Positions 14,183-54,187 are shown, numbered from the stretch's first letter. The stretch is DNA of 64,000 nt from a virus (IMGVR_UViG_3300026097_000017:16074-80073); one strand, 5' to 3'. Notes: a model not told the origin generated them from the letters alone. Program-made: numbers and translations.

Positions 14183-14187
14183 TCTTA

Positions 14188-15186: not shown

Positions 15187-15213
15187 AATATACTCCAATA
15201 ATTTAAGGGATCA

Positions 15214-15242
15214 AGTATATACTAAACTAATCAAGAAAGCAA
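15214..15242 (-). promoter_or_regulatory. sigma70-type promoter for the primase/RNR operon
   Basis: TTGCTT-N17-TATACT. Confidence 0.75.
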
Positions 15243-15545: not shown

Positions 15546-15898
15546 TTTTCGCTAGAAGATTTATTCTTACCTTTTTGCGCAATAGCATCCGCTCCAAAAA
15601 ATGCTGATACTAATACAGCAATAGATGCAAAGTATGTTGGAGCAATGTCTGCGATTAATTGAGCAGCAGTATCTAAACCAAAAGCTGAGGTTAGGAATAT
15701 GCCAATAGGATATAGTAAAAGTCCAAATAAAGCAAACCATGCCATCTTACGAATAGCATCACGTTGAGCATCTTGATCTTCTAGTTCTTTGCGCTTAAAT
15801 TCCAAGTGCATATCCATCTCTTCTTTAGAGATGTGCCCATCACCGTTAGTGTCAATACCTTCGACGCATGATGCATCAATTGTTTTAGTGTCAGCCAT
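15542..15898 (-). CDS. membrane protein with an EF-hand-like loop and 2 TMs (holin candidate)
   Basis: 'DTNGDGHISKEE' then two hydrophobic helices. Confidence 0.6.
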   Translation of the reverse strand: MADTKTIDASCVEGIDTNGDGHISKEEMDMHLEFKRKELEDQDAQRDAIRKMAWFALFGLLLYPIGIFLTSAFGLDTAAQLIADIAPTYFASIAVLVSAFFGADAIAQKGKNKSSSEK

Positions 15899-15962
15899 TA
15901 GATTTTCCTTCTTATTATAGATTCAATCAGTTCCTATAACAAAGCATAATCTAACTAACTTC

Positions 15963-15969
15963 TATTTAT
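15963..15969 (-). promoter_or_regulatory. T4-type late promoter
   Basis: ATAAATA upstream of 15898. Confidence 0.55.
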
Positions 15970-16388
15970 TGCAATTTAGTTTCGCTGACAGTAACATCAT
16001 CAGCATTCGGATTTACCGCATCCTCATAGTAAACAATTATCTGTGTTTGTTGATTAATATACCTTCTCAGCTCACCAACGTTTAACGCCAAGTTTTCATA
16101 ATCTCTGATAGATAATGCGACAAAAGCCAAATCACCATTTAGCTCTTGAAATTCTAAAATGAACTCTTCCAAGTTTTCTTTATTGACAACATGGATTCGA
16201 GTATCAACCAGCTGGACTGGCTTCGGTCTCTCCACTATCGGGACTTGCGTCTTCTCGATTTTGGTCACTACCTGTACTTTCGGTTCTGGCGTCGGGCTGA
16301 ACAGGCTGCAACCAGTCAGGAAGAGCAGAGTCGCCATCGCCACCAGTGTCTTGTTCGATATCACGCCACAATTTTGCCGTTGCACCAT
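15966..16388 (-). CDS. o-spanin (Rz1-like lipoprotein)
   Basis: Lipobox LTGC, Pro-rich segment; overlaps the i-spanin 3' end; true start probably GTG 16364 or ATG 16337. Confidence 0.75.
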   Translation of the reverse strand: MVQRQNCGVISNKTLVAMATLLFLTGCSLFSPTPEPKVQVVTKIEKTQVPIVERPKPVQLVDTRIHVVNKENLEEFILEFQELNGDLAFVALSIRDYENLALNVGELRRYINQQTQIIVYYEDAVNPNADDVTVSETKLQ

Positions 16389-16710
16389 TCATCTTACCTT
16401 CTAATAATTCTGGCTTAGTCTTAGCCAATTCAGTTAAATTATGTCTTCTCAATTTATTTCTAAGTTCATCACCGTATGCCTCAGCCTTTTGAAGCTCACC
16501 CTGAAGTTTTCTATTAGATTCAGCAAATCGTTCCATGTCATTCTGAAGCGATTTAATGCTATCTTCACTAATAGCGATAGCAGTTTCTAACTTAGCGTTA
16601 TTTTCTCTGAGTACACCGATACGTTCTTGTGTGTCATTATAATACCAATAAAACGCACCACCCATAGCAAACATCAATACAGCCATTACAGCCGCAAGTT
16701 TCAATCCCAT
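16204..16710 (-). CDS. i-spanin (Rz-like)
   Basis: N-terminal TM followed by a long coiled coil, overlapping a lipoprotein gene. Confidence 0.75.
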   Translation of the reverse strand: MGLKLAAVMAVLMFAMGGAFYWYYNDTQERIGVLRENNAKLETAIAISEDSIKSLQNDMERFAESNRKLQGELQKAEAYGDELRNKLRRHNLTELAKTKPELLEGKMNGATAKLWRDIEQDTGGDGDSALPDWLQPVQPDARTESTGSDQNREDASPDSGETEASPAG

Positions 16711-16821: not shown

Positions 16822-17715
16822 TCAAATTTTTAATACTTGATTGGGCGTTTTGAAATCCTTTTTTCTCATCACTGTCTTAGCGACCAAATCAATTTCCTGA
16901 TTATCTGAATCCCAGTTTAAAACGAAAGGAAGATTCACATCAGTTTGCATATCTTTAATTACTGCCTGCGCATCTGGACCAAGCTGTGCAATCTTTTTAC
17001 CATACTTCCGATACGTTTGCTTAAACAAACGAACGAGTTCGGCTGGAGTAATATCTTTAAAGTTGCGAGCGTCATTAACACGGTCAATGAAATGGCGAGT
17101 AAATTCAACATCAATACCAACAGCTCTGAATAATTTGTCAGCATATTGTTCAACCTTCTTTAGATCACCAAGAGTAACCTTTTCCACCAAGTCTGCTTTT
17201 TTCTTTCTTCTTAGAATGCTAGAACCATCAACGGGACTGCGGAATCTTTTACGATTTCCTTTCATACCCACTTGATATTTTGGTGATCTCCAGTGAACAG
17301 GATCATCACCTGTTCCTGCTACTGCAGCACCAGTAGACATAGTCGGTGCATCTTCTTTTACGCTCTCTGATAAAGTCTGCATATCCTGTTGATCTGCAAA
17401 CTTCCAAAAATCTTCTTCAAGTGTTTTTAGAGATGTGTTCTTACCCTCTTTCAGCAAAAACAATGCAGCTGTGTAGCGACCAAGCATCGTTCTACCAAAA
17501 GGAACTTTGGCTAGCATCTTTTTTAGATTGTTAACTAGAAGATCCATGTGAGTGAATGCTTCTTTTTCTTCACGTGTCTTCAGTTCTCTTCTTTTTCTGA
17601 GAACCTTTCCATCAGCATCAATGATTCCAAGCTGATATGCCTCTGTTTCCTCGAACGGAGTAGACAGTTTCTTGAGGAACTGATACGTGTAGAATGTTTC
17701 AAGCGGACTTTTCAT
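16822..17715 (-). CDS. conserved T4-like multidomain protein, probably virion-internal
   Basis: N-terminal 'AYQLGIIDADGKVL'; E-rich linkers; C-terminal 'FTRHFIDRVND...KTVMRK' domain. Confidence 0.7.
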   Translation of the reverse strand: MKSPLETFYTYQFLKKLSTPFEETEAYQLGIIDADGKVLRKRRELKTREEKEAFTHMDLLVNNLKKMLAKVPFGRTMLGRYTAALFLLKEGKNTSLKTLEEDFWKFADQQDMQTLSESVKEDAPTMSTGAAVAGTGDDPVHWRSPKYQVGMKGNRKRFRSPVDGSSILRRKKKADLVEKVTLGDLKKVEQYADKLFRAVGIDVEFTRHFIDRVNDARNFKDITPAELVRLFKQTYRKYGKKIAQLGPDAQAVIKDMQTDVNLPFVLNWDSDNQEIDLVAKTVMRKKDFKTPNQVLKI

Positions 17716-18112
17716 AGCTCTGTTCCAATAACTCTCTTACTGTTTCGTCTTCTTCGATGTCACGCAAATAAATATCATCAGCATTCACGCCAATACCTTC
17801 TATTATGTTGACATCAATCCCCAAGAACACTAAAAATGCTTTCAAATAACCATGATGTAAAGGATCAATTTTCAAAAACAACATTCTAGTTGCAGGATAA
17901 TCACCAAAAAGATTGCGTAAAATTGTCATATGAGTTATAATCAGTCTTGACTGTAACTCACCCTTATTCATAAAACGATTGAAGAGTCTTCTCAAATACT
18001 TGATTCTCTTCAAGTCATCCTGAAACTCCAACACACTTACACAATCAGGATTCTCATAATGTTTGGCAGCATATAGTTCAAAGTTCAAATCATCTAATCT
18101 TTCAAAACTCAT
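17699..18112 (-). CDS. conserved T4-like hypothetical protein
   Basis: 'NFELYAAKHYENP.C....EF.DDLKRIKY' pattern common in T4-like phages. Confidence 0.75.
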   Translation of the reverse strand: MSFERLDDLNFELYAAKHYENPDCVSVLEFQDDLKRIKYLRRLFNRFMNKGELQSRLIITHMTILRNLFGDYPATRMLFLKIDPLHHGYLKAFLVFLGIDVNIIEGIGVNADDIYLRDIEEDETVRELLEQSYEKSA

Positions 18113-18120
18113 TATAATAG

Positions 18121-18384
18121 TTATTCTGTCGGCATTTCATCTTCAGGTTCATCTTCTTGGGGATACAAAAGATAATCCCTAGCAGATGAAATTGACTCCT
18201 TCGCTCTGCTAATCTTGTTCATCCACCAACTGGGGAGAACATGATCTTCAGCAGGAATAGACTCTAACTCTTCTAAAATTTCTTCAGCTTCATCTCCGAT
18301 GATTTCAACCATACGTTTGGCAGAAGCCAAGTCCATATGCCCGCTTTCGGAAATGGTAGTCAAAAAGTCTTCAAACTTCTTCAT
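18121..18384 (-). CDS. small acidic protein with capsid-targeting-like N-terminus
   Basis: MKKFEDFLTTISE. Confidence 0.65.
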   Translation of the reverse strand: MKKFEDFLTTISESGHMDLASAKRMVEIIGDEAEEILEELESIPAEDHVLPSWWMNKISRAKESISSARDYLLYPQEDEPEDEMPTE

Positions 18385-18385
18385 A

Positions 18386-18787
18386 TTAGAATACCTCTAA
18401 TGCAACTCTTTTGATTACAGTATTAGATACTGCAACATATAGATAGTTTTCATCCCAGAACAACTTGCCATCATGAGCAGCAACTGGTGAACCAAAAACT
18501 GTTGTAGCATTATTTGAGGCAGGTGTCTTGGCTGTATTGATCTGTACATGATCATTATTAGCAATCAACACACCAGTTACAGTTGTGTTTGCCTTAAAGA
18601 AGGACTTCGCTTCAATAATCGTATTCGCAGTAGTTCTCAACGTCCCTACTGCGATCGGATCAAAGAAGTTTTGTACAGTAACCTTCTTATTGGCTGGTGT
18701 TCCGCTTGGGTCATTGACCACATGTACCAAGTCATCGCTCGATACTGCGGTCAACTCATCAAGCTGAGTGATCTTTTTATCAGCCAT
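18386..18787 (-). CDS. probable virion structural protein
   Basis: 'MADKKITQL' start and C-terminal 'WDENYLYVAV...KRVAL' seen in phage fibre proteins. Confidence 0.65.
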   Translation of the reverse strand: MADKKITQLDELTAVSSDDLVHVVNDPSGTPANKKVTVQNFFDPIAVGTLRTTANTIIEAKSFFKANTTVTGVLIANNDHVQINTAKTPASNNATTVFGSPVAAHDGKLFWDENYLYVAVSNTVIKRVALEVF

Positions 18788-18797
18788 CAGTTAATCC

Positions 18798-19772
18798 TTA
18801 TGAATCAGGGAGTTCTACATCACCACTGTCATCATCACCGTCGCCAGTGATTGTCGACATAGCAACGAGTACTTCTGCTTTCTGACGTGTATTACCATTA
18901 GAATCAGTATATTGATCAGTGTAATGCACCCATCCAGCGTGAGAAGAACGCTCAGAATCTCTTGCTTCTACAGTAGCAGTAGCAGTTGAACCTGAACCAC
19001 CAGCTCCACCGAATGTTACAGCAGGTGCTGAAGTGTAGCCATATCCCGCTTCAGTGATTGTGATAGTAGAACCAACTCCGATTGTCAAATCCACAGTCAA
19101 AGCGTCATCGCCCGAACCATCAATCTTAGTTGTGGTTGCTTCATCAAGAGTAGGCAATACAGTATAAGAACCGCCATCTACGATAGTTAATGCTGTCACA
19201 ACACCTGACGCATCAGTAGTGACTGTCGCGTTTGCTGATGTACCAGTTCCACCATCAACTTCAATCGAATCACCGTTAGCGTATCCAGATCCACCAGCAT
19301 CACCAACTGCCATTGTGATTACAGTACCTACCGCTGTAGCAGTAGCAGTTGTTCCACTAGTTGGTGCAGCAAGTGTTACAGTTGGACGAGCAGTGTATCC
19401 TGTACCTGCAGCAGTCAAAGTGATTGCAGTAACCTTGCCTTCATTTACACCCATTTCCGCTACAGAAACGCCATAAACTTGGTCACCATCAATTGACGTG
19501 TCGCCATCAATAACATATGCAGGCTTTTCACTTACAGTGTATGCCTTACCAGTCAATGTACCAGTAGTCAGTTCAGTGTTTGATACTAAAGTCATTGATG
19601 TTGCATTAGTGATTGCAGAAATCACTGCTTCCCCGCCAGCGTCAGCAATAGCGATGACATCACCTGCTGCATAGTTGTTAGCAAAAAATGTATCTGTTCC
19701 AGTAACAGTCAATCCGCTCAAAGCAACTGTTCCTGGTGACGCAATATCGTCTTTATTTCCCCAGAGTGACAT
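18798..19772 (-). CDS. Thr/Gly/Ala-rich virion structural (decoration/fibre-like) protein
   Basis: 'MSLWG', repeated 'G.GYT..P.VT' beta motifs, 'HAGWV...E.LVAM'; late promoter upstream. Confidence 0.75.
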   Translation of the reverse strand: MSLWGNKDDIASPGTVALSGLTVTGTDTFFANNYAAGDVIAIADAGGEAVISAITNATSMTLVSNTELTTGTLTGKAYTVSEKPAYVIDGDTSIDGDQVYGVSVAEMGVNEGKVTAITLTAAGTGYTARPTVTLAAPTSGTTATATAVGTVITMAVGDAGGSGYANGDSIEVDGGTGTSANATVTTDASGVVTALTIVDGGSYTVLPTLDEATTTKIDGSGDDALTVDLTIGVGSTITITEAGYGYTSAPAVTFGGAGGSGSTATATVEARDSERSSHAGWVHYTDQYTDSNGNTRQKAEVLVAMSTITGDGDDDSGDVELPDS

Positions 19773-19798
19773 GTTTAGTCTCCTTTAATTAGTATTAT

Positions 19799-19805
19799 TA
19801 TTTAT
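19799..19805 (-). promoter_or_regulatory. T4-type late promoter
   Basis: ATAAATA followed by AGGAG RBS. Confidence 0.65.
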
Positions 19806-20434
19806 TTCTTTTCTTTAGCAAGCATATCAGCAACTTTCTTATATGTTGCAATATCTTTCTTGCTGAGACCATAATCATTTGCTTTTCTTTCCAGATCAGC
19901 TATTCCTGGACCTTTGCCTTCGGAATGCGTACCACAAGAACCTTCGTGCACTTTACCACATTTTTCGCACATAGCTTCCATAGTTTCCCCAAACATAGAC
20001 TTACGCAATTGATCTAGTTTCTTTGGAGAAACACCAAACTTAGCAATCGCATCTTTCTTAGACATGCCATCAAGCATTGCCTTCATTGCCGCAACTGCTT
20101 TTTTATCTTGCACACCTTCGTCTATTTCTACTTCAGGATTGACTTCTACTTTGTCTTCCTTTTTCTTTTCACTATCTTTGCCCATTGCTTCAGTCACTTT
20201 GTCTGGGTCCAGCTTGATTGTTACAGGAAACGTTTTTCCGCCAAACTCAAACTCTTTTTTCCCAGCCTTTTTGGCAGCTGCAGCCTTTACGATAAAGTCC
20301 TGAGCTGATTCAGTAGAAATTTCTTTTGGGATCTCTACTTTGATGCCATTTTTCTCAAAAACTTTCGTGCCAGTCATGACATTTTTAACAGCTTCTAGCA
20401 TACCGCTAGAATAACTAAATTTAGAACCGTACAT
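19802..20434 (-). CDS. Lys/Glu-rich modular protein, probably prohead-core or internal
   Basis: 'AAAAKKAGKKEFEFGGKTFPV' module and several hydrophobic-x-E sites. Confidence 0.65.
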   Translation of the reverse strand: MYGSKFSYSSGMLEAVKNVMTGTKVFEKNGIKVEIPKEISTESAQDFIVKAAAAKKAGKKEFEFGGKTFPVTIKLDPDKVTEAMGKDSEKKKEDKVEVNPEVEIDEGVQDKKAVAAMKAMLDGMSKKDAIAKFGVSPKKLDQLRKSMFGETMEAMCEKCGKVHEGSCGTHSEGKGPGIADLERKANDYGLSKKDIATYKKVADMLAKEKK

Positions 20435-20729
20435 ATTTTTCTCCTATGAAATCCCGTTCTGTTATCTTTACGATTAAATTCGTAGTACCTTTAATAACCC
20501 GATGAAAGTCGTATGCCTTCACCAAAATAGTCATACCCTCTTCTAACTCAAAGGGAACTTTATTGTCATACTGAAACTTCCATCCTGCACCACCCATAAT
20601 TTCAATAATACGATCTTTTTTATCACGGTGCCAAATAAATTCGCTGTTAGACAAATTTACTGAAAATTCTCTCAAGAAGGATTTACTACCTTCTTCTCTC
20701 CAATCTTTGTATGGTATAGATTCACTCAT
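20421..20729 (-). CDS. small cupin-like protein
   Basis: 'WHRD...WKFQYDN..P......HRVIKG'. Confidence 0.6.
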   Translation of the reverse strand: MSESIPYKDWREEGSKSFLREFSVNLSNSEFIWHRDKKDRIIEIMGGAGWKFQYDNKVPFELEEGMTILVKAYDFHRVIKGTTNLIVKITERDFIGEKYVRF

Positions 20730-20743
20730 TGCATTCTCCAGTA

Positions 20744-21508
20744 TCACCAAAAAAAGCTACCACCGCCTTCTAATCCCAACTCTTTAGCATAGTAAGGAAG
20801 ACGACATGCCCAATATCCAGGCTTGGTATTATCTTTCTTTTGATCGCACTTATGTCGAGCATTGAAAGATTTCCTAGCAGCAGGATCATTGAGTTTGACC
20901 TTCAATCCAGAAGTATCACCAAACTGCACTTTAATGACATTACCCTTGTCATTTTTAACATACACATAGAACTTCTTGTCACCACCACGTTTGGGGCTGT
21001 TTAGTTCTACATCTCTTCCTTTATATTCAGCCTCAATTAACGGAATATCTAACGGAACTTCTTCACCTTCATAAATGCCGAGTTCTCCCGCATTTGATTC
21101 TAACAACATGCGATCAAAAGCATCATCGGTTTCTAACTTTCCTTCCTTCCACAATCTGCGACACTCTCTAAAAAACTCATAGTATGCCTCACTATGTGGA
21201 CGGAATATATTTTCTTTAATTGACAAATTATATTCAGTATGGTAATCGATGGCTTCAGAAATACTGTCATACCCTTCCACCATTGATGCTAGATCACGTG
21301 CATCCACACCTTGAAACTGTTTAGCAATCTGCGCAGCATAATACTCGATACTATGTTGCAGTTTACCTTCTTTGCGCTTTTTGTTAACTACTTGTTGTAA
21401 AATATCTTTAGCAACTTTATATGTGCGAGGCTTGGTCACATAGCGTCTCATCAGCTTTGTGAACCAATCCTCCTCAAGTTGTTTATCAAATTGCTTAAAA
21501 CTTAGCAT
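20744..21508 (-). CDS. multidomain protein with capsid-targeting-like N-terminus
   Basis: MLSFKQFDKQLEE; C-terminal 'AEYKG..V.LN.P.RG..KKFYVYV...ARKSF.ARHKC...GYWAC' module. Confidence 0.75.
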   Translation of the reverse strand: MLSFKQFDKQLEEDWFTKLMRRYVTKPRTYKVAKDILQQVVNKKRKEGKLQHSIEYYAAQIAKQFQGVDARDLASMVEGYDSISEAIDYHTEYNLSIKENIFRPHSEAYYEFFRECRRLWKEGKLETDDAFDRMLLESNAGELGIYEGEEVPLDIPLIEAEYKGRDVELNSPKRGGDKKFYVYVKNDKGNVIKVQFGDTSGLKVKLNDPAARKSFNARHKCDQKKDNTKPGYWACRLPYYAKELGLEGGGSFFW

Positions 21509-24500
21509 TACTTACCTGTCGCCAATTTAAGTGCATTCATAAAGTCTTTCTTGCTTCTACCCATCATCTGCTGAAGAGCTTGCTTCTGAATTGGCTTAGC
21601 AAGTGCTTGGTGAAGATTCATCAGTAATTTTGCATCTTTCGGGTCAATCTTCATGGTAGAACCATCAGCAAATTGTACTGGCTTCATACCTCTTAGATCA
21701 ACAACTTTACGCAGCTGCATTACGATATTTTCTTCTTCCTCTTCCTTTGGCTTACGACCTTCTTCAATATCTGACTTGACCATGTCTTTGACAGTATTCA
21801 AGTGTCCTTGATGATAGTCGTGCCCCATTAAGCCTGCTTCTTTGATCTTGGCTTTGGCAATTTCAATACGACGAGTAATTTCATCAACATCACCTTGAGT
21901 AGCAAACCCACGATCTATCGCTTTACCTTCAATCTCAAGATACTGGTCAACAGCTTTCATTGCAGTTCTAACTTTAGGAACGTCGCCAACCTTTTCTAAG
22001 TCTTTCTTAAACTGCTCAACAGCAGCAGGACATAAATCCATGTATTCATATGTTTGCCCAGCTATTTCTACTTCTTCATTCATATTTTTCATGATATCAT
22101 GTTGAGTTGCTGGCTTGATACCATAATCATTAAATGCTTTCTTGATGTCAGCATCAGAAAACTTTTTGTCGTTACCACTCTTGAAGTTGAACTTTTTAGC
22201 TAGATCAGAAATGAACTTTGGATTGCCACGCATCCAGTTAGCTTTGGTCAATGCCTTGTTGACATCATTCCAAGAATACTTTTCATCAAGTTCAAAGATT
22301 TCTTCTTCTGTCACTTCATCAAAAGATGCTACTCGCTTCTCTTCCATCAAACCATTTTTCTTAAGAATACGGAATACAACTTCACGAACATCAGTATCCA
22401 TATCCATTACGATTTTATTGAGTTGATTCAGTAAGTCGCCTGAGTTGATCAGAGAAACCTTACCGAGCCGATCTAGGATAATAGCCAGCTTCTTCAGATT
22501 CGCACCCTCAATCGGATCCTTCACTGAACGGAGTTCTTTAGATGCTCTTGAATATGCCTTAGAATCTTTTGATTCTTTCATCTTTATGCCACGCTTCGCA
22601 AGTTGTCTTGCTCTAGACATCCCTGAAGTCTTCGTTCCATCACTATTTCTTGGCGTCTTTTTAGGTTTGGGATCAGGATCGAAAGGTGGTTTTCCTTTAG
22701 CAGATTCCATCAAACCAGCCTTCTTTAATGCTTTATCAAGTTCATCTTTAATATCTTTATTTTTAGCGAGGAGACCATAATCTTTATTCACACTAGCAAT
22801 AAATCCACTAGCTTGTAAAATGTTAGGACTCTTCGCAAGAGCTTCCATGTTTCTAATCATGTCATTAAAGGTCGCTTTCATATCTTTGGAAATCTGTAGA
22901 CGGGAAACTTGCTTGACTCCTTCAGCACCTTTCTTCCAGTTGGCAGAAATTTTTGCTGCCTCATCCAGTTCAACTTCTTCACGAATATCTGATACCATAT
23001 GCAACTTATTATACATATCAACTTCCACATTAGTGCCGTCTTTCGCTGTACCGAACAGAACAGCGTTGGCAACTTTATCGACAGTATATTGCTTGCCTTG
23101 ATACTTGAACGTGTTACCTTTCCTGAATGGCTCTCTGATCTTTATTTCTTCTAGATCAGCTTCTTCATTCTTTGGCTTTTCACCTTTCTCTTTCTTGGCA
23201 ATGGCAATCGCTGCCTGTTGAGCAGGACTTACTGCTTCTTTCTTGTCAGGAAGCCCCTTATGCTTCGTGCTAGCAAAATCTTCTAAATCCTTTTCTGACA
23301 TAGAACCTGCCAGTTCTTTAACTTCATCTGATACTTCATCATCACTCAGCTCACCACGCTTATATTGAAGCGCAAGTGCCATCAACTTTTGTTGAGCTAC
23401 TGAAGTTGCCTTCTCTTCTAGTTCTATGAACTCTTCAAAAATTCTGTCTAAAGATTCCACTGTAAATTCCTCTTTCTTAGCTTTTTTGGCCTTCGCCCAT
23501 AAGTCTGCGTCAGCAGTTGTTCTAGTCTTTCCACCGACAATGAATGAATTGACGCGAGCAAATGCCCACTGATGTTGTGTTGCTCCAGGACGATGTCCTG
23601 TCTTCCAAGCTGCCATCCCTCTATCGTACACTTTTTTCAGAATACCATAAGGAATGCCTGATTTTTTGGATTTTTTCTTCAGCCCTTCGATTTGTTTCTC
23701 AGTTACCAACTCAATCTCTTCGTTGAATGCTTTCTCTTGCCACTCATAAGATCTATCATCTTTGGTGATTGGACCACCAGATGCCCAAGTGTCGCACGAA
23801 CGCTTAGAATGACACTTGAAGTGATGCATCCAGCAATAGCCCAACTCACCTGCACCCTCTGATACTTCTCCTGGCATACAATCTTTCATTCTTGGTGAAA
23901 TATCAAATGCTACGCAACTTCCACAATTAGATTTTTTAGCAGCATCAACAGTGGTGTTCCACTTATCTGCCAGTTTATTCCAGTAATCTCCTGGCTCGCT
24001 CACATTGAGAGGTCCATACATATGATTTCTGCGAGTTAAATTACGGTTTTTAGTATTAACATCTACATTTTGAGTTGCTGTAGGGCATGCAACTTCTTGC
24101 TCAACCATAGGTATTAATTGTATTTTTTCTTTGACGCAATTGGGCACAGGTTTTCCTCCCTTACCTTTCTTCATACCAACCTGCTTGTATCCATCCCAGC
24201 AAGGATCTTCATCTTCGCCATACATTTGCTTGTACTTCTTTGTATACTTACTTGGTTTAGTTTCTGCGTCAGCATCTCCAGGAGCAGGCTTATATGACTT
24301 AGGATCGTCATCAGGCAACTTGGCTCCACGCTTGAACTGTTGCGCTCTACTTTTGGCAGTCTTTTTCTTCATACCTTTATAGTATTGAGCAGGCTGATCG
24401 CCTTTTACATCAGGCATTACATCTTCAGTCAGACGCATACCTTTACGGACTTTCATAAAAACCTCTTCTGCTCTTTTCTGGAGTGCTTTAGGTAATCCTA

Positions 24501-24966
24501 GTGTGAAACTTTTTAAATCACCATTCGCAGCAAGTTCTCTCATCTTTGAAGCTGACATACCTGACACGTCTTCAGCATCAGGATCTCTTGCTCCTGCCGA
24601 AACAACTTCAATACTGTCAAAAGTATACTCTTTTTGATTGTAGTTGTTAAGCAGTTTATCAAATTTTTGCACACGATCTGAACCAACAACCATAATTACG
24701 TTGTCATATTCTTTATCGAGTTCTTTTAAAACTTCAATGACAGTGCGTGCTTTAGACACCTTGACAATTGGACCGAACGCAACTTTAGCGTAACGAACTT
24801 TGTCAAGATATGGGAGAGGATTCTTTTTAGGATCCTGCGACTGCGACAAATAAATTGCTACATCAGCACGTTTACGCAACGCAGTTTTTTTGAGTTTACT
24901 GACCAATAATTCATGACCAGTGGTTGGTGGATTGAGCCTACCAAATGTAAATACAATAGTTTTCAT
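21508..24966 (-). CDS. HIGH-family (cytidyltransferase-like) nucleotidyltransferase fused to a long string of small modules (1152 aa)
   Basis: N-terminal 'FGRLNPPTTGH' and 'MSASKMR'; downstream Cys-rich, DUF3008-like and other modules separated by E-rich linkers. Confidence 0.85.
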   Translation of the reverse strand: MKTIVFTFGRLNPPTTGHELLVSKLKKTALRKRADVAIYLSQSQDPKKNPLPYLDKVRYAKVAFGPIVKVSKARTVIEVLKELDKEYDNVIMVVGSDRVQKFDKLLNNYNQKEYTFDSIEVVSAGARDPDAEDVSGMSASKMRELAANGDLKSFTLGLPKALQKRAEEVFMKVRKGMRLTEDVMPDVKGDQPAQYYKGMKKKTAKSRAQQFKRGAKLPDDDPKSYKPAPGDADAETKPSKYTKKYKQMYGEDEDPCWDGYKQVGMKKGKGGKPVPNCVKEKIQLIPMVEQEVACPTATQNVDVNTKNRNLTRRNHMYGPLNVSEPGDYWNKLADKWNTTVDAAKKSNCGSCVAFDISPRMKDCMPGEVSEGAGELGYCWMHHFKCHSKRSCDTWASGGPITKDDRSYEWQEKAFNEEIELVTEKQIEGLKKKSKKSGIPYGILKKVYDRGMAAWKTGHRPGATQHQWAFARVNSFIVGGKTRTTADADLWAKAKKAKKEEFTVESLDRIFEEFIELEEKATSVAQQKLMALALQYKRGELSDDEVSDEVKELAGSMSEKDLEDFASTKHKGLPDKKEAVSPAQQAAIAIAKKEKGEKPKNEEADLEEIKIREPFRKGNTFKYQGKQYTVDKVANAVLFGTAKDGTNVEVDMYNKLHMVSDIREEVELDEAAKISANWKKGAEGVKQVSRLQISKDMKATFNDMIRNMEALAKSPNILQASGFIASVNKDYGLLAKNKDIKDELDKALKKAGLMESAKGKPPFDPDPKPKKTPRNSDGTKTSGMSRARQLAKRGIKMKESKDSKAYSRASKELRSVKDPIEGANLKKLAIILDRLGKVSLINSGDLLNQLNKIVMDMDTDVREVVFRILKKNGLMEEKRVASFDEVTEEEIFELDEKYSWNDVNKALTKANWMRGNPKFISDLAKKFNFKSGNDKKFSDADIKKAFNDYGIKPATQHDIMKNMNEEVEIAGQTYEYMDLCPAAVEQFKKDLEKVGDVPKVRTAMKAVDQYLEIEGKAIDRGFATQGDVDEITRRIEIAKAKIKEAGLMGHDYHQGHLNTVKDMVKSDIEEGRKPKEEEEENIVMQLRKVVDLRGMKPVQFADGSTMKIDPKDAKLLMNLHQALAKPIQKQALQQMMGRSKKDFMNALKLATGK

Positions 24967-25008
24967 CCAGGTTTCCCGAAGTGCTAACTGGTTAATTAAT
25001 TATGAATA

Positions 25009-25015
25009 TATTTAG
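25009..25015 (-). promoter_or_regulatory. T4-type late promoter
   Basis: CTAAATA upstream of the 1152-aa ORF. Confidence 0.6.
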
Positions 25016-25018
25016 TAA

Positions 25019-25744
25019 TTAGGATCTTTGACCTGTTCCTTCGTCATCTATCAATATACCTTCCCCAAATACACCATATTCCTGCGTGCCTGCGCTGGCT
25101 TTGCCCTGAAACTGAATATCTGTTTTTTCGCTATATGCAAAGGGATAATATCTTTGAATATTCATCTGTTCTAGGAATGAAGTTTCTGCAACATTAAACT
25201 CTACTCCCGCTGGCGTGACAGCTCTATTTCTGAAAAATAATATACGATTGTTTAATGCTGCAGTAGCACTAAATGCGTCAATACGATTTAAATGGAAACT
25301 ATGTCCAGCAGGAACTGTGAAAATTGAGGCTTGATTTCTACCAACTCTTGGATTTATTTGGCCATAGACTGTACTACCACCAGTTAATGTGATAGTGCCA
25401 TTGGCTGTATTACCAGCAATAGTAATTAAATCATTGATTCTAAAAAACTCATTGGATAGAACGGTATTCGCTGTACCATCTACAGTGACATTTTCTGAAA
25501 TGATTTCATAGTTAGAATCTAAACCAACCACTCTAACTGTACAGCTATCAGTCCCATCATCACTAGTCATTCCCATAGCTGTATTCGCAGTGGGATAAGT
25601 GTATACAGTGTTATTTTCCCAAAGAGGAATATAGCTGGCACCTAGTGATGAATTGAAACCAAAAATGTTTCTGACACTAGCATTACGAACAAGTCCTCTA
25701 GCAACTGAAAGTCTTTCTTCATCTAAATATCTTAAATACGGCAT
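25019..25744 (-). CDS. beta-rich hypothetical protein (probably structural)
   Basis: 'VRVVGLD.NY..ISE.V', 'FFRIN', 'FTVPAG'; start at ATG 25744 coupled to the upstream stop. Confidence 0.65.
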   Translation of the reverse strand: MPYLRYLDEERLSVARGLVRNASVRNIFGFNSSLGASYIPLWENNTVYTYPTANTAMGMTSDDGTDSCTVRVVGLDSNYEIISENVTVDGTANTVLSNEFFRINDLITIAGNTANGTITLTGGSTVYGQINPRVGRNQASIFTVPAGHSFHLNRIDAFSATAALNNRILFFRNRAVTPAGVEFNVAETSFLEQMNIQRYYPFAYSEKTDIQFQGKASAGTQEYGVFGEGILIDDEGTGQRS

Positions 25745-26973
25745 TATCGTTGCCAACCTTTCTTAATATTCGGAGAGAAGTTATTGTAAGAAAACTCCAT
25801 CCGATCAACGAGTTTCACTGCATCACCCTTTAGTTTGTCAATGGCGACGAAGCCTTCCTGTCCTGTCACTTTGTACCCATCATCAGTCAATACGAAAGTG
25901 CTCAGGCTCTTTACCTTATTTAGTTTTCCAATTAAAACCTGTTTAGCATCGACAAGGAGGTTCTGAAGTTCGAAGATCTTTTCAAGATTTTTCTTGTTGG
26001 TGTTCGAGAAAAAGCGCATGACCTGAGCTTTCTTGGCTCTGGGACCTGCCTTTCCTCTTTCGGTTTTTCGTTTTGATTCTTCTGCACCGTAGTACTCCAA
26101 TATGTAATCGATTAATTCGTTGACATGACGTTTCACATTCTTAACACGCTCGCCACTTCTCACCTTAGTATTATTGAACGTCTTTACTCGGAGTAATAAC
26201 TCATCATCTGCAGATATGCCGTTGAGCGTCTTAGGATCTAGAGATTGAAATATTTTTCCAGCCTGTGACAATATCTTATTGACTTCAGTTGTTTCTGCCT
26301 TAGTCATTGTCGCTGCACCTGAGACATCTTTGTACTCAGCATCAGTAGAAAATACAGCAGAACTATCTCTCAGAGTATCAGCAATATTCTTACCGAATGA
26401 TGCTCTCATATTCTCAAATGACTCACCGTCATAGTTCGTGTGCCAAACAACTCCAATTTTAGATGACAGTATCTGCCGAGCAAGTTTAGACTTCGCAGGA
26501 ACTGCGTAGACAATCGTGTTTGGATGGAACGTAATATATTCCTCACCATCAATCGTTGTTTTATCTACTGTATCATTAGAGAACAAAAAATCACCCTGAA
26601 TCACGTTGGTAATTCCAAGATCAGGGAAATGCTTCAATGCCAAAATTAATTTATTTTGGAGATCTCCTGAAGTATCTGCTTTAACTTCTGCTTCTGTCTT
26701 GTAGATCTTAGGCTCTTTATTGAAAATTCCTTTCTTGGCAACAAAAAACTTGCCGTCACGAGGATCGATACCAGCAAAAACGGCAGGAGCACCGTCCCAC
26801 TTGACGGAAATATTAACTTTTGAATCACTAGTACCAGCAAGCATGTCACGTACAGCTCTAAGAAAATTAATAGCTTCCCTAGCCCCTGCAACTCCTCCAT
26901 TTAGGACGAGATCTTCCACATGTTCCATATGAAGATTTTTAGATTCTTCGAGATATGATTCAAAATTCTTCAA
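25744..26973 (-). CDS. DUF6267-like protein, covalent nucleotidyltransferase (RNA-ligase-like) fold
   Basis: KWDG (motif I), QGDFLF, EGFVA, KLV; TTG start; N-terminus MKNFESYLEE. Confidence 0.75.
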   Translation of the reverse strand: MKNFESYLEESKNLHMEHVEDLVLNGGVAGAREAINFLRAVRDMLAGTSDSKVNISVKWDGAPAVFAGIDPRDGKFFVAKKGIFNKEPKIYKTEAEVKADTSGDLQNKLILALKHFPDLGITNVIQGDFLFSNDTVDKTTIDGEEYITFHPNTIVYAVPAKSKLARQILSSKIGVVWHTNYDGESFENMRASFGKNIADTLRDSSAVFSTDAEYKDVSGAATMTKAETTEVNKILSQAGKIFQSLDPKTLNGISADDELLLRVKTFNNTKVRSGERVKNVKRHVNELIDYILEYYGAEESKRKTERGKAGPRAKKAQVMRFFSNTNKKNLEKIFELQNLLVDAKQVLIGKLNKVKSLSTFVLTDDGYKVTGQEGFVAIDKLKGDAVKLVDRMEFSYNNFSPNIKKGWQR

Positions 26974-28181
26974 GGTTGTAATCCTACTTTATCCGATGCC
27001 CGATTGGTTGAGTTTTTACTACGGAATACTACTTTCTTCACGCTGTCCTGTAACTCTGACATAATAACTGAAAAGTCACCAATCGGATTTGAATTGCCAA
27101 TACTGTATTTAACGTATATCACCAGTCCTGAAGTTGCATCCTTAAAAATATTTGTAGGATTCGCATCTTTGTTTGCTTTAGCAATAATATACTTTTCAGT
27201 GTAATAAAAGATTTCGCCGATCTTTGGCTGTCCCTTTAAGTTTGGGATGTTGATTAAGTCAATTAGATCAGCGAACAATTCGTAATCATAGTTTGTTTTT
27301 TGAAAATCAGAAAACTTTATTTTACTTGCTGCCTGCAATGCTTTATTTGATAAAACATTCTTTCCTTCTATAGCATTGATTGCCTGAAAAGGAAACTGTA
27401 CTGTAGAGTATTGAGTGATCATCTCAAGAATCTTTTTGACTGTAGAAGTATTGTATTTTCTCAAAAGATTTTTCTGCTCAAGTAATGTGATCACGTCAGC
27501 AGGTTTTAGTGTATTCGTAGTTGAACCACTCTTAGCTGAAATACTGTAACGAACCTTAGAACTGTCTTGGATATAGTAGTCAACGATCGGCTCATTACCT
27601 CTGAGCGGAAAGACCAGTGTTGGGTTGGTAGATAACTTAATTTGAGGAGAAAGTATTTTGTGCTTCACACAAGCGATTGCTCCTAGCATCTCACCATAGT
27701 CTTTCTGTATTTCATTGACACCACGGAAGTCGCCGAATGTTTTACGAACATCTGCCGCAGTTGTATTGTCAATCTTAGCCCAATATTTGGTCAATGCGAT
27801 TAAGTATGTTTTCAGATCGGCTTCTAAGTCTTGCCGTTCTTCAATCTCATCAATTAACCCTTTAGCAAGTTCATCTGCTTTAAGTGATTCTTTTTTGAGA
27901 AGTTTAAAATCTTGTGGTTTTAATTTGATACCAGAAACCAGTTTACTCTTTGGCTTCTGGACATTATTGAATGTGACGTAGTATTTTTTGTCGCGATACT
28001 GAATCGGGCATTTTTCATTGTAGGTATCGGTTGCCAGGAAAACGATTGGGGAACCAGCTTCAATATTACCAACGTTGCGCAATTGCTCATCAAGCAAAGG
28101 CGACTTCTTCTTCATTACGGTTTCAATGTCACCTTTGCCTTTGAAGTGTTTTTCCCAAGCGTCTTTACCTGTCGATGCCAT
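26970..28181 (-). CDS. putative PD-(D/E)xK restriction-endonuclease-like protein
   Basis: 'DYGEMLG...FP..GNEPIVDY.......ISAK' pattern. Confidence 0.55.
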   Translation of the reverse strand: MASTGKDAWEKHFKGKGDIETVMKKKSPLLDEQLRNVGNIEAGSPIVFLATDTYNEKCPIQYRDKKYYVTFNNVQKPKSKLVSGIKLKPQDFKLLKKESLKADELAKGLIDEIEERQDLEADLKTYLIALTKYWAKIDNTTAADVRKTFGDFRGVNEIQKDYGEMLGAIACVKHKILSPQIKLSTNPTLVFPLRGNEPIVDYYIQDSSKVRYSISAKSGSTTNTLKPADVITLLEQKNLLRKYNTSTVKKILEMITQYSTVQFPFQAINAIEGKNVLSNKALQAASKIKFSDFQKTNYDYELFADLIDLINIPNLKGQPKIGEIFYYTEKYIIAKANKDANPTNIFKDATSGLVIYVKYSIGNSNPIGDFSVIMSELQDSVKKVVFRSKNSTNRASDKVGLQP

Positions 28182-28378
28182 TATTCGTTATCTGTTTGAC
28201 CTTCTTCGTCTGCTTCAATGTTTTTATCAGCATCAAATAATGATGACGCAATCTCAGCTCGTTTGGTATCCATTGCCAAACTAATACGCTGTAAGACTTC
28301 GTCCTCAAATGCTGATTTGAACGCAGATGCTTGTTTGTTTTGGGCTGCATCAACCATTTTATTTAAATTCTCTGACAT
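28181..28378 (-). CDS. small prohead core protein (gp67-like)
   Basis: 'ASAFKSAF...RISLAMDTKRAEIASSLF' plus acidic tail resembles the ORF that normally follows the portal gene. Confidence 0.6.
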   Translation of the reverse strand: MSENLNKMVDAAQNKQASAFKSAFEDEVLQRISLAMDTKRAEIASSLFDADKNIEADEEGQTDNE

Positions 28379-28403
28379 AGTATATCCTCCTCATAGATAG
28401 AAA

Positions 28404-28410
28404 TATTTAG
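28404..28410 (-). promoter_or_regulatory. T4-type late promoter heading the 15-28 kb late block
   Basis: CTAAATA then GAGGAGG RBS. Confidence 0.7.
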
Positions 28411-28796
28411 GCACACACCGTAGCGAGTTCTTTCTCTTTAGAGTATGCCTCTTTCTCCCAAGGAAGTTCGTAGTATGGTACATTGTATTCCTTACCGTAC
28501 CAGAGACGACCGTCCTCACTCAACTCTTGTTTAATGTACTGTTTAGCGTGGACTAGTTCGTGAGCCAAATGACAACGTAATTCCGCATCAGTGAAATCTT
28601 CTTTAGCGATTTCAATAATGATGTCGTCGTAATCAGTATCTGTACCACAGAAACCACCCATCTCACCGTCGACTGATTTGCTACCAATAATAGTAACTTC
28701 GCCTTCAGTTACGTCTAACGCAGAAAGAACTCGGTAAGCAAAGTCACCGAGTTCTGCGTTTTTCTTTCTACCGAAACCTTTTACTTCAACAAACAT
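28407..28796 (-). CDS. HExxH zinc metallopeptidase-like early protein
   Basis: 'LAHELVHAKQY...LPWEKEAY'. Confidence 0.75.
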   Translation of the reverse strand: MFVEVKGFGRKKNAELGDFAYRVLSALDVTEGEVTIIGSKSVDGEMGGFCGTDTDYDDIIIEIAKEDFTDAELRCHLAHELVHAKQYIKQELSEDGRLWYGKEYNVPYYELPWEKEAYSKEKELATVCA

Positions 28797-28822
28797 TAAC
28801 TTCTCTCTCAACCTATACATAT

Positions 28823-29244: not shown

Positions 29245-30642
29245 TTATGTAATCCATCCAGAAAAATCTTTAACCGTATTCTTTACACTCTTCCCAAAGT
29301 CAGAGTTATCAAATACAGGCACATCTTGACCGCTGTCAATGATATCATCTTGAGCGGTTTGCTCTACATCATACAAGCGCATCTTAGAACGATCAATGCC
29401 AACTACGAAACGTTTGTTCATCGTTGGATCATTATAACGATTCTTCAACTGCTTGATCATGATTTGGTTTAAACTCTCCATCTCTTCAGTGGAGATCATT
29501 GCAAACATAAAGTCAGCTGTCGCTGGCAGACCGAATGATTCAGATGTATCTTCAAGTCCGATATCGCTCGACACATATCCTGAGCGAGTCGTCTGAGTAG
29601 CTGATACAACGGGAAGATTAAACTCTACCGCTAGTCCACGCAGTTCCTCAGCGATTGACTTGATGAGTGTGTAGGAGTTTACTGATCCACCCATCCGAAT
29701 CCTTGAGGAAGAACAAATATTCAGATAATCAATATAAATGATATCAGGAACAAAGTTCCGCTTCAAGTTCAGCTCATTCAATAAATGACGGAAGTGATTC
29801 ACTGATGCTGACGCAGTAGGATATTCCTTCACGATCAGCTTTCCGCTTGTTTGCTTGTTAATTTTATCAATCTTGCTTTGATAAAGTTGCTCAGGCAAGT
29901 TGTACAAATCATTCAAAGAAACGTTCATCAAGTTTGCGTCAATACGTTCAGCAATCTTTTCTTCAGCCATCTCCATCGTAATGTACAAAACATTGCGTCC
30001 CAACATTAAATTATTAGCAGCACAATGACACATGAACAACGATTTACCGACACCTGTACCTGCCAGCGCAATATTCAATGATTTGCGGGACAACCCACCT
30101 TTAGTGATAGTATTCAGAAGTTCTATATCAAACGGAATCTTATCTTCCTTCGTATGATAGAAAGCATATCGTTCAGCAGAATCTTCAATGAAATCGTGAC
30201 CAACGTTTGTATCAAAGGCAACTGCCAAAGCATCCTGCAGAAGTTTAGGAATATGCCCCTTGTCATGGTTTTTGTCACGCCCATCAAGAATTTGAATTGA
30301 ATCCATCACAGCATTGTAGACTGCTTTTTCTTGACAGTATTTTTCAGTTGAATCAATCAACCACTGATGATTAGGTTCATCCTCTACTGAACTAACTTCA
30401 CCAAGCAGATCATTAATTTGTTTAAACTCTTCTTCACGGAGATTGCTTAGATTATCAATCTCGATCTGTAGAGCTTCTTTAGTTGGAAGATTGTTATATT
30501 TTTCTACAAACGACTGTATTTCTTCAAACAGTATTTTCTCAGCCCGACTATTAAAATAATCAGGCTGAATGAATGGTAGAACTTTTCTAGTGTATTCCTC
30601 ATCAAACAGTAGATGACGAAGAATTACTGTTTCAATCCTCAA
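29245..30642 (-). CDS. 41: replicative DNA helicase (T4 gp41)
   Basis: Walker A 'AGTGVGKS', 'IDYLN', 'SATQTTR', 'TSESFGLPATAD'; likely TTG start at 30642. Confidence 0.95.
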   Translation of the reverse strand: MRIETVILRHLLFDEEYTRKVLPFIQPDYFNSRAEKILFEEIQSFVEKYNNLPTKEALQIEIDNLSNLREEEFKQINDLLGEVSSVEDEPNHQWLIDSTEKYCQEKAVYNAVMDSIQILDGRDKNHDKGHIPKLLQDALAVAFDTNVGHDFIEDSAERYAFYHTKEDKIPFDIELLNTITKGGLSRKSLNIALAGTGVGKSLFMCHCAANNLMLGRNVLYITMEMAEEKIAERIDANLMNVSLNDLYNLPEQLYQSKIDKINKQTSGKLIVKEYPTASASVNHFRHLLNELNLKRNFVPDIIYIDYLNICSSSRIRMGGSVNSYTLIKSIAEELRGLAVEFNLPVVSATQTTRSGYVSSDIGLEDTSESFGLPATADFMFAMISTEEMESLNQIMIKQLKNRYNDPTMNKRFVVGIDRSKMRLYDVEQTAQDDIIDSGQDVPVFDNSDFGKSVKNTVKDFSGWIT

Positions 30643-51446: not shown

Positions 51447-51453
51447 TATTTAT
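51447..51453 (-). promoter_or_regulatory. T4-type late promoter for gp23
   Basis: ATAAATA upstream of the RBS. Confidence 0.6.
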
Positions 51454-53229: not shown

Positions 53230-53502
53230 TTACAGTCCTAACGTTTTTCTTTTTCTTAATGTCTTAGATCTCTTACGCAAAGTCTGAGACATTTTTCCCT
53301 TTCTCTTCTTAGCAGCCTTACGTTGAGCCATCTTTCTAGCTCTACGCTCAGCGGCAGACATTTTAACAAGTTTTCCGCCACGAACAGTGTAACCTGCTTT
53401 ACCCGCAACTTTTTTTCTTCTTTGAACTTGTCCGCCACGAACTCTATTCACTTTTTTAAAAGTGACTTCGTCCATATTGGCAAATTCAAAAAATGTCAGC
53501 AT
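53230..53502 (-). CDS. basic prohead core protein (gp68-like)
   Basis: Very Lys/Arg-rich, directly upstream of gp21; N-terminus MLTFFEFANMDE. Confidence 0.7.
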   Translation of the reverse strand: MLTFFEFANMDEVTFKKVNRVRGGQVQRRKKVAGKAGYTVRGGKLVKMSAAERRARKMAQRKAAKKRKGKMSQTLRKRSKTLRKRKTLGL

Positions 53503-53762
53503 TACGCTCTAAATCCGATTCTAACAGCTTTAACTTCTACATTTGATGAAAGATTATCTGTGTAATCCTTTTCTACAAACTCAATACCTTTAGAAGCCAT
53601 CGTGAAAGTGCCGATAGTATTAGATCCATCGTTGCTAGTATGAGTAATCAAAGCTGGTGTATCTTGATCGTTGTAAACACGAACCAACTTTGCATCAAAA
53701 ACTGTATTAGCAGTAGTCAATGCTATTTCGTTATCACCTTGAAGTTTAATGATACTGGGCAT
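53502..53762 (-). CDS. small virion-associated hypothetical protein
   Basis: 86 aa, beta-rich, in the head operon. Confidence 0.65.
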   Translation of the reverse strand: MPSIIKLQGDNEIALTTANTVFDAKLVRVYNDQDTPALITHTSNDGSNTIGTFTMASKGIEFVEKDYTDNLSSNVEVKAVRIGFRA

Positions 53763-54187
53763 TATCTTCTCGCCTGTTTAAATGCAAAGTCAACCATTTT
53801 CATGAAGGAAGAAACATCTTTGTTTAGCATTCTTTCCAACTTTTTTTGGTTTGACGGATTTACCGCATCATAAACTTTTGTGATAGCACTGGCTGTCATC
53901 AAGTCTACTGGCGTTTCATCTCCATCGTCAAACTTAATAGACTTTGTGCCTTTACGCTTGACGATATCTCTTAAATCTTTGAGGACATTCTTTTCAGCCA
54001 TCGTATTTGTTTCTTTGTCAGAAATACGTTTGGCTTGCCCTTTATCTGACTTGAACTGACCATCCGTAGCAACAGGGTAATCAGTAGCCTGCGTTCCGTG
54101 AACTGCAAAGAATGCTTTATCTTGCTCAGATCGAGGATTAATTACCTCATTCATTCTTTTTCTAAGTTCTTTGAATGGACGTGCCAT
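53762..54187 (-). CDS. head-operon protein, probably prohead core or internal
   Basis: MARPFKELRKRMNE start; C-terminal domain paralogous to the end of 21508-24966. Confidence 0.7.
   Translation of the reverse strand: MARPFKELRKRMNEVINPRSEQDKAFFAVHGTQATDYPVATDGQFKSDKGQAKRISDKETNTMAEKNVLKDLRDIVKRKGTKSIKFDDGDETPVDLMTASAITKVYDAVNPSNQKKLERMLNKDVSSFMKMVDFAFKQARR

Follow-up and report, generated by a model that had tools for sequence, protein, structure and literature searches.

Candidate capsid-targeting leaders and module-chain proteins in a conserved gene block of a marine T4-like phage

In this study, a gene block at positions 16,822 to 28,378 of a viral DNA stretch of 64,000 nucleotides (nt; IMGVR_UViG_3300026097_000017:16074-80073) was analysed. 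The stretch, hereafter the window, is part of an 80-kilobase (kb) metagenomic contig of a T4-like myovirus, and the whole gene set is encoded on the minus strand. The best explanation of the block, held with somewhat better than even confidence, is that it is a late-transcribed module of marine T4-like (Kyanoviridae-type) phages encoding head-destined proteins. Three of its proteins, and one protein of the head operon, start with a short leader resembling the capsid targeting sequence of T4, and this N-terminal motif occurs far beyond chance. Judging from sequence, a leader-bearing enzyme, two smaller proteins and a chain of modules are probably packed in the head, cut and injected with the DNA.

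PHROG searches of the contig identified the large terminase, sheath, portal, a gp21-type prohead protease, the gp22 scaffold and the gp23 capsid protein, together with the replication and recombination proteins UvsW, gp46/47, clamp loader, gp43, UvsX and gp41. By capsid protein (64-67% identity), the nearest cultured relatives were pelagiphages, Methylophilales phages, Stenotrophomonas phage DLP_6 and cyanomyoviruses.

Leader peptides and prohead machinery

In T4, the internal proteins IPI, IPII and IPIII and the protein Alt carry a capsid targeting sequence and are processed by gp21 (Mullaney and Black 1996, as reviewed in PMC9026906 and PMC5694885). Residues 4 and 7 of the tag mainly direct targeting, and residues 8 and 10 processing (PMC9026906). 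In the T4 record, IPII and IPIII start with MKTYQEFIAE/A, IPI with MKTFKEFTSTTTPVSTITE/A and Alt with MELITELFDE/D; the slash, here and below, marks the position after the glutamate of the motif. A sequence-only reading of the window had quoted five N-termini of this kind, three in the block and two in the head operon, and all five were found on the minus strand at the starts of the following proteins (lengths in amino acids, aa):

25744..26973, minus strand: DUF6267 protein, 409 aa, leader MKNFESYLEE (PF19782, E 1e-106)
20744..21508, minus strand: 254-aa protein, leader MLSFKQFDKQLEE; C-terminal domain phrog_7595
18121..18384, minus strand: 87-aa acidic protein, leader MKKFEDFLTTISE, by the strict leader pattern
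53230..53502, minus strand: 90-aa protein beside the prohead protease, leader MLTFFEFANMDE, body with an isoelectric point (pI) of 12; phrog_3503 'head scaffolding protein'
53762..54187, minus strand: 141-aa head-operon protein, N-terminus MARPFKELRKRMNE; C-terminal half paralogous to the last module of the 1152-aa protein described below

The DUF6267 open reading frame (ORF) starts with (TTG)KNFESYLEE, its ten-residue leader being encoded at 26944-26973 on the minus strand. The leaders of the 254-aa and 87-aa proteins are encoded at 21470-21508 and 18346-18384 on the same strand. The aromatic determinants (F4 and Y/F7) were present in the ORFs starting at 26973, 21508, 18384 and 53502, whose leaders end in LEE (residues 8-10), LEE (11-13), ISE (11-13) and MDE (10-12), respectively. 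The TTG start of DUF6267 was supported because homologues with an ATG start align from residue 1. This start overlaps the TGA stop of the upstream gene (TTGA, 26970-26973), which suggests translational coupling of the upstream 403-aa protein and DUF6267.

The frequency of the leader was assessed with a strict pattern derived from T4, namely any start residue, an aromatic residue at positions 4 and 7, and then [LIVM]xE by residue 20. Expected counts were derived from the frequency of the pattern at internal positions. At the ORF starts of the contig, 4 matches were observed against 0.37 expected (about 10-fold): the 90-aa head-operon protein, DUF6267, the 254-aa protein and the 87-aa protein. 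The loci of five relatives gave 1, 5, 2, 2 and 0 matches, with 0.03-0.08 expected for each. Among 1214 ORFs of 80 IMG/VR loci, 124 matches were observed against 2.4 expected (about 50-fold); these loci were retrieved through DUF6267 and, as the phages are related, the counts cannot be treated as independent. The weight of the 80-locus result lies in the spread of the leader over unrelated families, which comprised DUF6267, cytidylyltransferases, stand-alone DUF5824, the C-terminal domain of the 254-aa protein, 400-aa proteins upstream of DUF6267, and others. That C-terminal domain, where it stands alone in other loci, has its own leader. The positional counterparts of the 87-aa protein are also leader-bearing (MKNFKNHIAE in Melnitz and MKSFKDFQNVNE in HTVC008M).

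A relaxed leader pattern was no better than chance in the contig (12 matches against 7.4 expected). The N-terminus of the 141-aa protein matches the relaxed pattern only; since that pattern is uninformative, the start at 54187 was rejected as a leader. The leader had been said to be echoed in the head operon, and this held for the start at 53502, which matches the strict pattern, and not for the one at 54187.

DUF6267 gave the most detailed view of the leader, which was present in 119 of 120 close homologues. In the 105 homologues with a ten-residue leader, position 4 was F in 91% and L in 9%, position 7 was Y or F in 99%, and L/I at position 8 and E at position 10 were both present in 100%. 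The PF19782 model of DUF6267 begins after the leader. In an AlphaFold model from 62 sequences, the body had a mean predicted local distance difference test score (pLDDT) of 78, while residues 1-16 were below 50 and without secondary structure. In cyanophage orthologues, for example those of S-SZBM1 and S-RIM8, the protein begins straight at the conserved K-N-x-H-L-E-H-L-E-D. A set of 137 diverse DUF6267 representatives was divided into 20 without a leader, 94 with a leader and 23 fused behind other sequence. The motif [LIVMF]xE occurred in the last 12 residues before the core in 87 of the 94 (background 13%), and at the junction in 20 of the 23. The cut motif is thus kept at the N-terminal edge of DUF6267 whatever precedes it, as expected of a processing site, and the leader is separable from the enzyme. 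The carrier of the leader switches by lineage: in the cyanophages S-RIM8 and S-SZBM1 it is found on the cytidylyltransferase and not on DUF6267, and in the present phage the reverse is true.

The body of DUF6267 is likely a ligase-type nucleotidyltransferase, because K58, D60 and G61 (KxDG) were invariant in 62 sequences and the modelled fold matched RNA ligases at modest scores. The best fold match was the RNA editing ligase 1xdn (Z 6.8 over 116 residues), followed by other ligases at Z 5-6. The top Foldseek match was T4 Rnl1 (E 0.07), and nothing was obtained from the Protein Data Bank (PDB) at E <= 0.001. Sequence searches of the PDB with DUF6267 gave no match. More than 8000 close relatives of DUF6267 were present in the protein collection searched.

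The head proteins that would act on such leaders are encoded in the window, and a candidate core protein is encoded at the head of the block:

52569-53228, minus strand: gp21-type prohead protease (phrog_207, E 7e-81; BLASTP against T4 gp21, 1e-26)
51450-52541, minus strand: gp22 scaffold, containing LELDE/AAK (phrog_237, E 4e-76)
50048-51427, minus strand: gp23 capsid protein, containing SLLE/AAP (phrog_138, E 4e-162)
28181..28378, minus strand: 65-aa acidic helical protein, gp67-like, by hhalign and pairwise comparison

The LLE/AAP site that had been noted in gp23 is present, and SLLE/AAP aligns column for column with FLTE/AEI of T4 gp23, the known cut. The 65-aa ORF was compared by hhalign with a profile built from T4 gp67 and the small acidic proteins whose genes directly follow that of the portal in Mosig, S-RIM8 and S-CAM7. 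The match had a probability of 83% and an E-value of 8.8e-6 over 49 columns, on which basis the suggestion that the block starts with a gp67-like core gene was moderately supported. Pairwise comparison with Mosig_00043 gave E 6e-6; BLASTP against T4 gp67 reached only E 0.07, and the gene lies outside the head operon here. Relatives have the gp67-like gene directly after the portal gene; in this phage it heads the block, 26 kb away. Two collagen-like or fibre-like genes (474 and 262 aa; 54224-56480, minus strand) stand between the portal gene and the prohead core genes. The prohead protease itself starts with MKLITELNE, close to MELITELFDE of T4 Alt, which is cut at ITE-6. T4 gp21 has a comparable site, LIE-9, close to its N-terminus, and the protease of this phage may trim itself at that end.

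What was directly established here is that the motifs exist, are conserved and can be separated from the folded domains, and that the phage has the protease, the scaffold and the capsid cut site.

Module-chain proteins and their relatives in virions

A second group of proteins is modular:

21508..24966, minus strand: 1152-aa modular protein, NMNAT-like cytidylyltransferase first (phrog_3041, PF01467)
19802..20434, minus strand: 210-aa two-module protein with a second-type leader, MYGSKFSYSSGMLE/A, and an internal EVEIDE/G junction
16822..17715, minus strand: 297-aa basic protein, whose C-terminal domain (180-297) is a cytidylyltransferase-polyprotein module in other phages

Residues 1-190 of the 1152-aa protein form the NMNAT-like cytidylyltransferase (phrog_3041, E 1e-81; PF01467, 23.1 bits against a cut-off of 21), with PPTTGHE at residues 13-19 as a (T/H)xGH-type motif. 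The enzyme is followed by about ten small shuffled modules, among them a Cys module (252-278), DUF5824 (416-500), DUF3008 (519-577), an AVSPAQQ module (577-609) and a C-terminal module (1078-1150); further modules are mostly helical. Single-sequence AlphaFold prediction of this protein gave a mean pLDDT of 43 and no usable domain map. In homologues the modules occur in other orders, as separate genes or with other fusion partners. The separate 254-aa protein of the window corresponds to part of the Melnitz cytidylyltransferase protein, and module chains elsewhere also contain the C-terminal domain of the 297-aa protein and the final part of the 210-aa protein. In the homologue P0184, this final part precedes a polyprotein module in a single fusion.

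Several junctions of the 1152-aa protein carry the cut motif: IELEE/K at 518, ELDE/A at 671, GLME/S at 753 and FELDE/K at 895. Of 9 distinct contexts of DUF3008 in homologues, 8 had [LIM]-x-E ahead of the module; in one homologue it follows the N-terminal sequence MKDFFELRE. The AVSPAQQ module was preceded either by an internal ...ELEE or by N-terminal leaders such as MKSLKDLRE. Over all junctions, the motif was found in 32 of 104 distinct contexts, compared with 14% at random positions (p 1e-5). The junction signal is module-specific. Hydrophobic-x-E linkers had been proposed to lie between the domains; they were present at some junctions of the 1152-aa protein and missing at others. The longest peptide that this protein shares with any other ORF of the contig is ELDEAAK, found in the scaffold as LELDE/AAK, and a shared peptide of this length was reached in only 6 of 2000 shuffles. 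Its last module is paralogous to the C-terminal half of the 141-aa head-operon protein (BLASTP E 2e-7).

The cytidylyltransferase orthologue of DLP_6 (13724-15892) has 722 aa, starts with MKNIKDILE/A and ends in a ParB-like DGHHR segment, a type of domain characteristic of polyvalent proteins. In the cytidylyltransferase proteins of Melnitz, C48C1 and S-SZBM1, a T-P-G-Q followed by a tag-like stretch recurs internally or C-terminally (MTPGQNIVSFKEHL, DTPGQDDIFENW and MTPGQSIKKFSDY).

Orthologues of the NMNAT-like enzyme have been detected in purified virions. The part of the S-SZBM1 virion proteome covered here lists S-SZBM1_140 and its neighbours _139 and _136 (PMC9146016). The S-CREM2 virion proteome lists ORF154 together with 155, 156 and 160 (PMC10665884), and that of S-SCSM1 lists ORF91 (PMC9602691). 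S-SZBM1_140, as listed in that part of the table, starts with MRFRQFIIE/A. The cytidylyltransferases of S-N03 (a relative of S-CREM2), P-SSM2 and S-RIM8 start with MKGFSNFLIE, MKSFSQFLTE and MKKFSAFLTE, respectively. The leaderless DUF6267 of S-SZBM1 was not found in the portion of the virion protein table covered (PMC9146016).

Organisation and expression of the block

The neighbours of the block are, on one side, the gene for gp41 helicase (29245-30687) and, on the other, those for spanin and primase (14188-16710). The same gene order was found in C48C1, DLP_6, Melnitz, HTVC008M and cyanophage S-SZBM1: helicase, ~400-aa protein, DUF6267, cytidylyltransferase, small genes, 'virion structural protein', DUF7207 and primase. 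The base composition of the block was flat. A mobile island was therefore ruled out, and the description of the block as an 'island' had to be given up: it is a syntenic module, set between gp41 helicase and gp61 primase, that pelagiphages, Methylophilales phages and cyanophages have in common. Near-identical DNA was present in marine plankton and saltern metagenomes. The part at 18450-28420 was fully contained in one run, labelled soil metagenome; in four further studies, runs from marine plankton, marine and saltern metagenomes contained 0.64-0.71 of its words. No RNA run was listed as containing the stretch. When the block was compared with phage records by megablast, zero matches were obtained.

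The remaining proteins of the block are as follows:

26970..28181, minus strand: 403-aa basic protein without leader, 27% identity to S-SZBM1_142
25019..25756, minus strand: 245-aa acidic beta-rich protein without leader (phrog_8198)
20421..20750, minus strand: ~100-aa protein with a WHRD motif, without leader, by sequence and comparison with relatives
18798..19772, minus strand: 324-aa acidic Gly/Thr-rich virion structural protein, 'S-layer domain' type, by PHROG structural hits
18386..18787, minus strand: 133-aa conserved protein of the MADKKITxL type, by comparison with relatives
17699..18112, minus strand: DUF7207 protein, 137 aa, without leader (PF23837, E 2e-32)

The 403-aa protein had no Pfam, PHROG or NCBIfam family, and an Atlas search returned unnamed clusters only. 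In some relatives the 245-aa protein is the C-terminal part of proteins of 608-642 aa. By position, the 324-aa protein corresponds to S-SZBM1_136, which is abundant in virions in the part of the proteome covered, and the two share the N-terminus MSLWG/MSLYG; BLASTP between them gave no match. The 324-aa protein looks like an ordinary virion structural protein. The 403-aa, 245-aa, ~100-aa, 133-aa and DUF7207 proteins had neither a leader nor an informative family in PHROG, Pfam, NCBIfam and Atlas searches, and NCBIfam assigned none of nine block proteins to a family. Literature searches on DUF6267, DUF5824, DUF3008, DUF7207 and 'cytitidyltransferase' found no papers.

The block had been proposed to be driven by three (C/A)TAAATA late promoters, and the sites were confirmed:

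28404..28410, minus strand: CTAAATA, late-promoter-like, 25 nt upstream of the 65-aa ORF
25009..25015, minus strand: CTAAATA, late-promoter-like, 42 nt upstream of the 1152-aa ORF
19799..19805, minus strand: ATAAATA, late-promoter-like, 26 nt upstream of the 324-aa ORF

In the whole window, (C/A)TAAATA was below chance overall (20 found against 28.6 expected). The coding strand carries 18 of the 20, and in 12 of these 18 cases a start codon follows at a distance of 19-64 nt. Genes preceded in this way include those for sheath, portal, fibre, scaffold and capsid, and the three sites of the block are also among the 12. The motif is thus informative only by its position relative to starts and not by its count. 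The block may be expressed late together with the head genes. Scans of the block for sigma-70 promoters and terminators gave results not above shuffles.

Directly upstream of the block, a 137-aa protein with an HExxH motif (HELVH) is encoded at 28407-28820 on the minus strand. It is preceded by a near-consensus sigma-70-type promoter (TTGACT, 17 nt, TACAAT) at 28851-28823. It matched unnamed PHROGs only and had no Pfam match, and it may be a small early zinc peptidase-like protein.

Proposed mechanism, alternatives and comparison with known systems

In the proposed mechanism, the leader would dock the protein on the gp22/gp67-type scaffolding core during prohead assembly. The gp21-type protease would then cut after the Glu of (L/I)-x-E and remove the leader, and the mature protein would stay in the head. 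The 1152-aa and 210-aa proteins would probably be loaded as chains and cut at the motif-bearing junctions. At infection, the contents of the head would leave with the DNA. Docking by leaders, trimming after Glu and cutting of at least some chain junctions were judged fairly probable. We infer packaging, cutting and injection in this phage, and an early role, for example in NAD (nicotinamide adenine dinucleotide) supply or nucleic-acid end repair, from these features. A role in counter-defence or host takeover is speculative, since it is drawn wholly from analogy with T4 IPI and Alt and from the nature of the two enzymes.

A number of observations weigh against this mechanism. Ten of the 13 block ORFs have no T4-type leader, about half of the block genes carry no cargo signal, and the 403-aa, 245-aa, DUF7207 and 133-aa proteins show none whatever. 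The 1152-aa protein starts with its enzyme domain (MKTIVFTFGR) and without a leader, as do most of the 120 closest homologues of the NMNAT-like enzyme. Several junctions lack the motif, and the C-terminal module was preceded by it in 0 of 30 homologue contexts. The motif [LIVM]xE carries little information, the 1152-aa protein having 29 sites against 19 expected. Low AlphaFold confidence of a terminal peptide is weak evidence, and DUF6267 was without report in any virion proteome. In the parts of the virion-proteome papers covered here, the authors warn of carry-over of abundant late proteins (PMC9146016, PMC9602691, PMC10665884). The idea of a block of packaged cargo was thus borne out in part: the T4-like leaders, which are conserved in hundreds of homologues, gp21/22/23, the gp67-like gene, the late-promoter-like motif shared with the head genes and the virion NMNAT orthologues speak for it, whereas the leader is present on 3 of the 13 ORFs, the 1152-aa protein is leaderless and the 324-aa gene appears to encode an ordinary virion structural protein.

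The proteins might be packaged and cut and yet serve head assembly or DNA condensation, not early action as injected enzymes or effectors. This was considered unlikely. It would suit the 90-aa leader protein, which has a pI of 12 and adjoins the protease, the many polyprotein modules that are small, basic and helical, and the gp67-like gene at the head of the block. Two of the candidates, however, are enzymes with intact catalytic motifs (TTGH of the cytidylyltransferase and the invariant KxDG of DUF6267), which would be pointless for packing, and the T4 precedents Alt and IPI act after injection.

It is distinctly improbable that the leader is real and has another job, such as cytoplasmic docking, autoinhibition or stability control, in a block of structural genes and late cytoplasmic enzymes with no head loading. 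The leader is dispensable for the enzymes, because leaderless orthologues are common (20 of 137 DUF6267 representatives and most close cytidylyltransferases), and the virion detections consist of few peptides that possibly reflect carry-over. Against such a job stand the presence of the leader on several unrelated families, its fit to the four tested determinant positions of T4 and its constant end in a protease motif. It is also found on the basic protein encoded beside the prohead protease, and the leader-bearing S-SZBM1 enzyme is listed in the covered part of that virion proteome.

A compositional coincidence of amphipathic helix starts and E-rich helical spacers, with the 1152-aa protein an uncut multidomain protein, is very improbable and is disfavoured by the counts. 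In its favour, the relaxed pattern was at chance level, the sites of the 1152-aa protein were only modestly raised and the promoter motif total was below chance. Against it, the strict pattern exceeded expectation about 10-fold in the contig and, in the 80 related loci, about 50-fold, E10 was invariant in 105 homologues, and junction sites were kept when domains were fused in new orders.

Under the preferred reading of head-destined, protease-trimmed proteins, a wider proposal can be made tentatively. Marine T4-like phages (cyanophages, pelagiphages and methylotroph phages) may share a loading code readable from sequence, made up of a T4-type ten-residue tag and protease-cut junctions, by which the capsid would be filled with exchangeable enzymes and module strings; these would be injected in finished form and would act ahead of all phage gene expression. 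An NMNAT-like enzyme and a ligase-type nucleotidyltransferase would make up this cargo in the present phage, for example restoring NAD+ or repairing cut RNA against host defence. These phage families are among the most abundant marine viruses. Should the tag function as it does in T4, it could be read from sequence which proteins uncultured marine phages package and inject, and the recurrent NMNAT-like enzyme in purified cyanophage particles would be explained. The tag would also point to a set of first-minute effectors, which would range from NAD metabolism and the repair of nucleic-acid ends to small proteins of acidic or basic character. The capsid-targeting principle of T4 would thereby reach a distant phage family and cargo composed of enzymes and polyproteins, which would be of use in delivering proteins by phage.

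Both the tag and the rule for protease cutting belong to classical T4 biology, and the detection of the enzyme in cyanophage particles is published. For cyanophages and pelagiphages, no paper was found on a capsid-targeting leader or on cargo chains cut by a protease, within an incomplete coverage of the literature. As in the T4 internal proteins, the leader is N-terminal, has 10-19 residues, carries aromatics at positions 4 and 7 and ends in (L/I)-x-E, and the bodies behind it are mutually unrelated, only the leader being common. A gp21/gp22/gp23 head system with the same capsid cut site is also shared with T4, and expression may likewise be late. Unlike T4, the phage is a Kyanoviridae-type marine phage, not one of the Tevenvirinae, and is known here from sequence alone. 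Its cargo candidates include a 46-kDa (kilodalton) ligase-like enzyme and, in relatives, an NMNAT-like enzyme, and part of the candidate cargo consists of shuffled modules in one long chain. Whereas the T4 genes are scattered in plastic regions, those of this phage form a conserved cluster.

The ejection proteins of the giant phages phiKZ, 201phi2-1 and SPN3US (PMC5694885) are also head-internal proteins, including enzymes, that are cut after Glu by a gp21-related protease, and their propeptides are thought to target them to the prohead (PMC5694885). They differ in being cut at (S/A/G)-x-E, with a small residue at P3 where L/I is found here, and in having long propeptides in place of a ten-residue tag; their cargo is not homologous to that of this phage.

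The module chains resemble the polyvalent proteins (Iyer et al. 2017, PMC5512222), in which many unrelated domains are joined in one polypeptide, are re-shuffled among relatives and are proposed to travel with the DNA into the host. The ParB-like DGHHR domain at the end of the DLP_6 orthologue adds to the likeness. In contrast, the hallmark domains of polyvalent proteins (MuF, ART, zincin peptidase and helicases) were not found in the 1152-aa protein, which has one recognisable enzyme domain with DUF5824 and DUF3008 among its modules, and processing here would be by the prohead protease and not by a built-in peptidase. The polyvalent-protein paper mentions neither cyanophages nor cytidylyltransferases (PMC5512222).

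A further likeness is to the virion-associated NMNAT/cytidylyltransferase of the cyanomyoviruses S-SZBM1, S-SCSM1 and S-CREM2. In the parts of those papers covered here, detection only is reported, with no leader, cleavage or modular chain described. The enzyme belongs to the same family as residues 1-190 of the 1152-aa protein and is encoded in the same gene neighbourhood; unlike the cyanomyovirus enzyme, that of the present phage is leaderless and fused to ~960 further residues.

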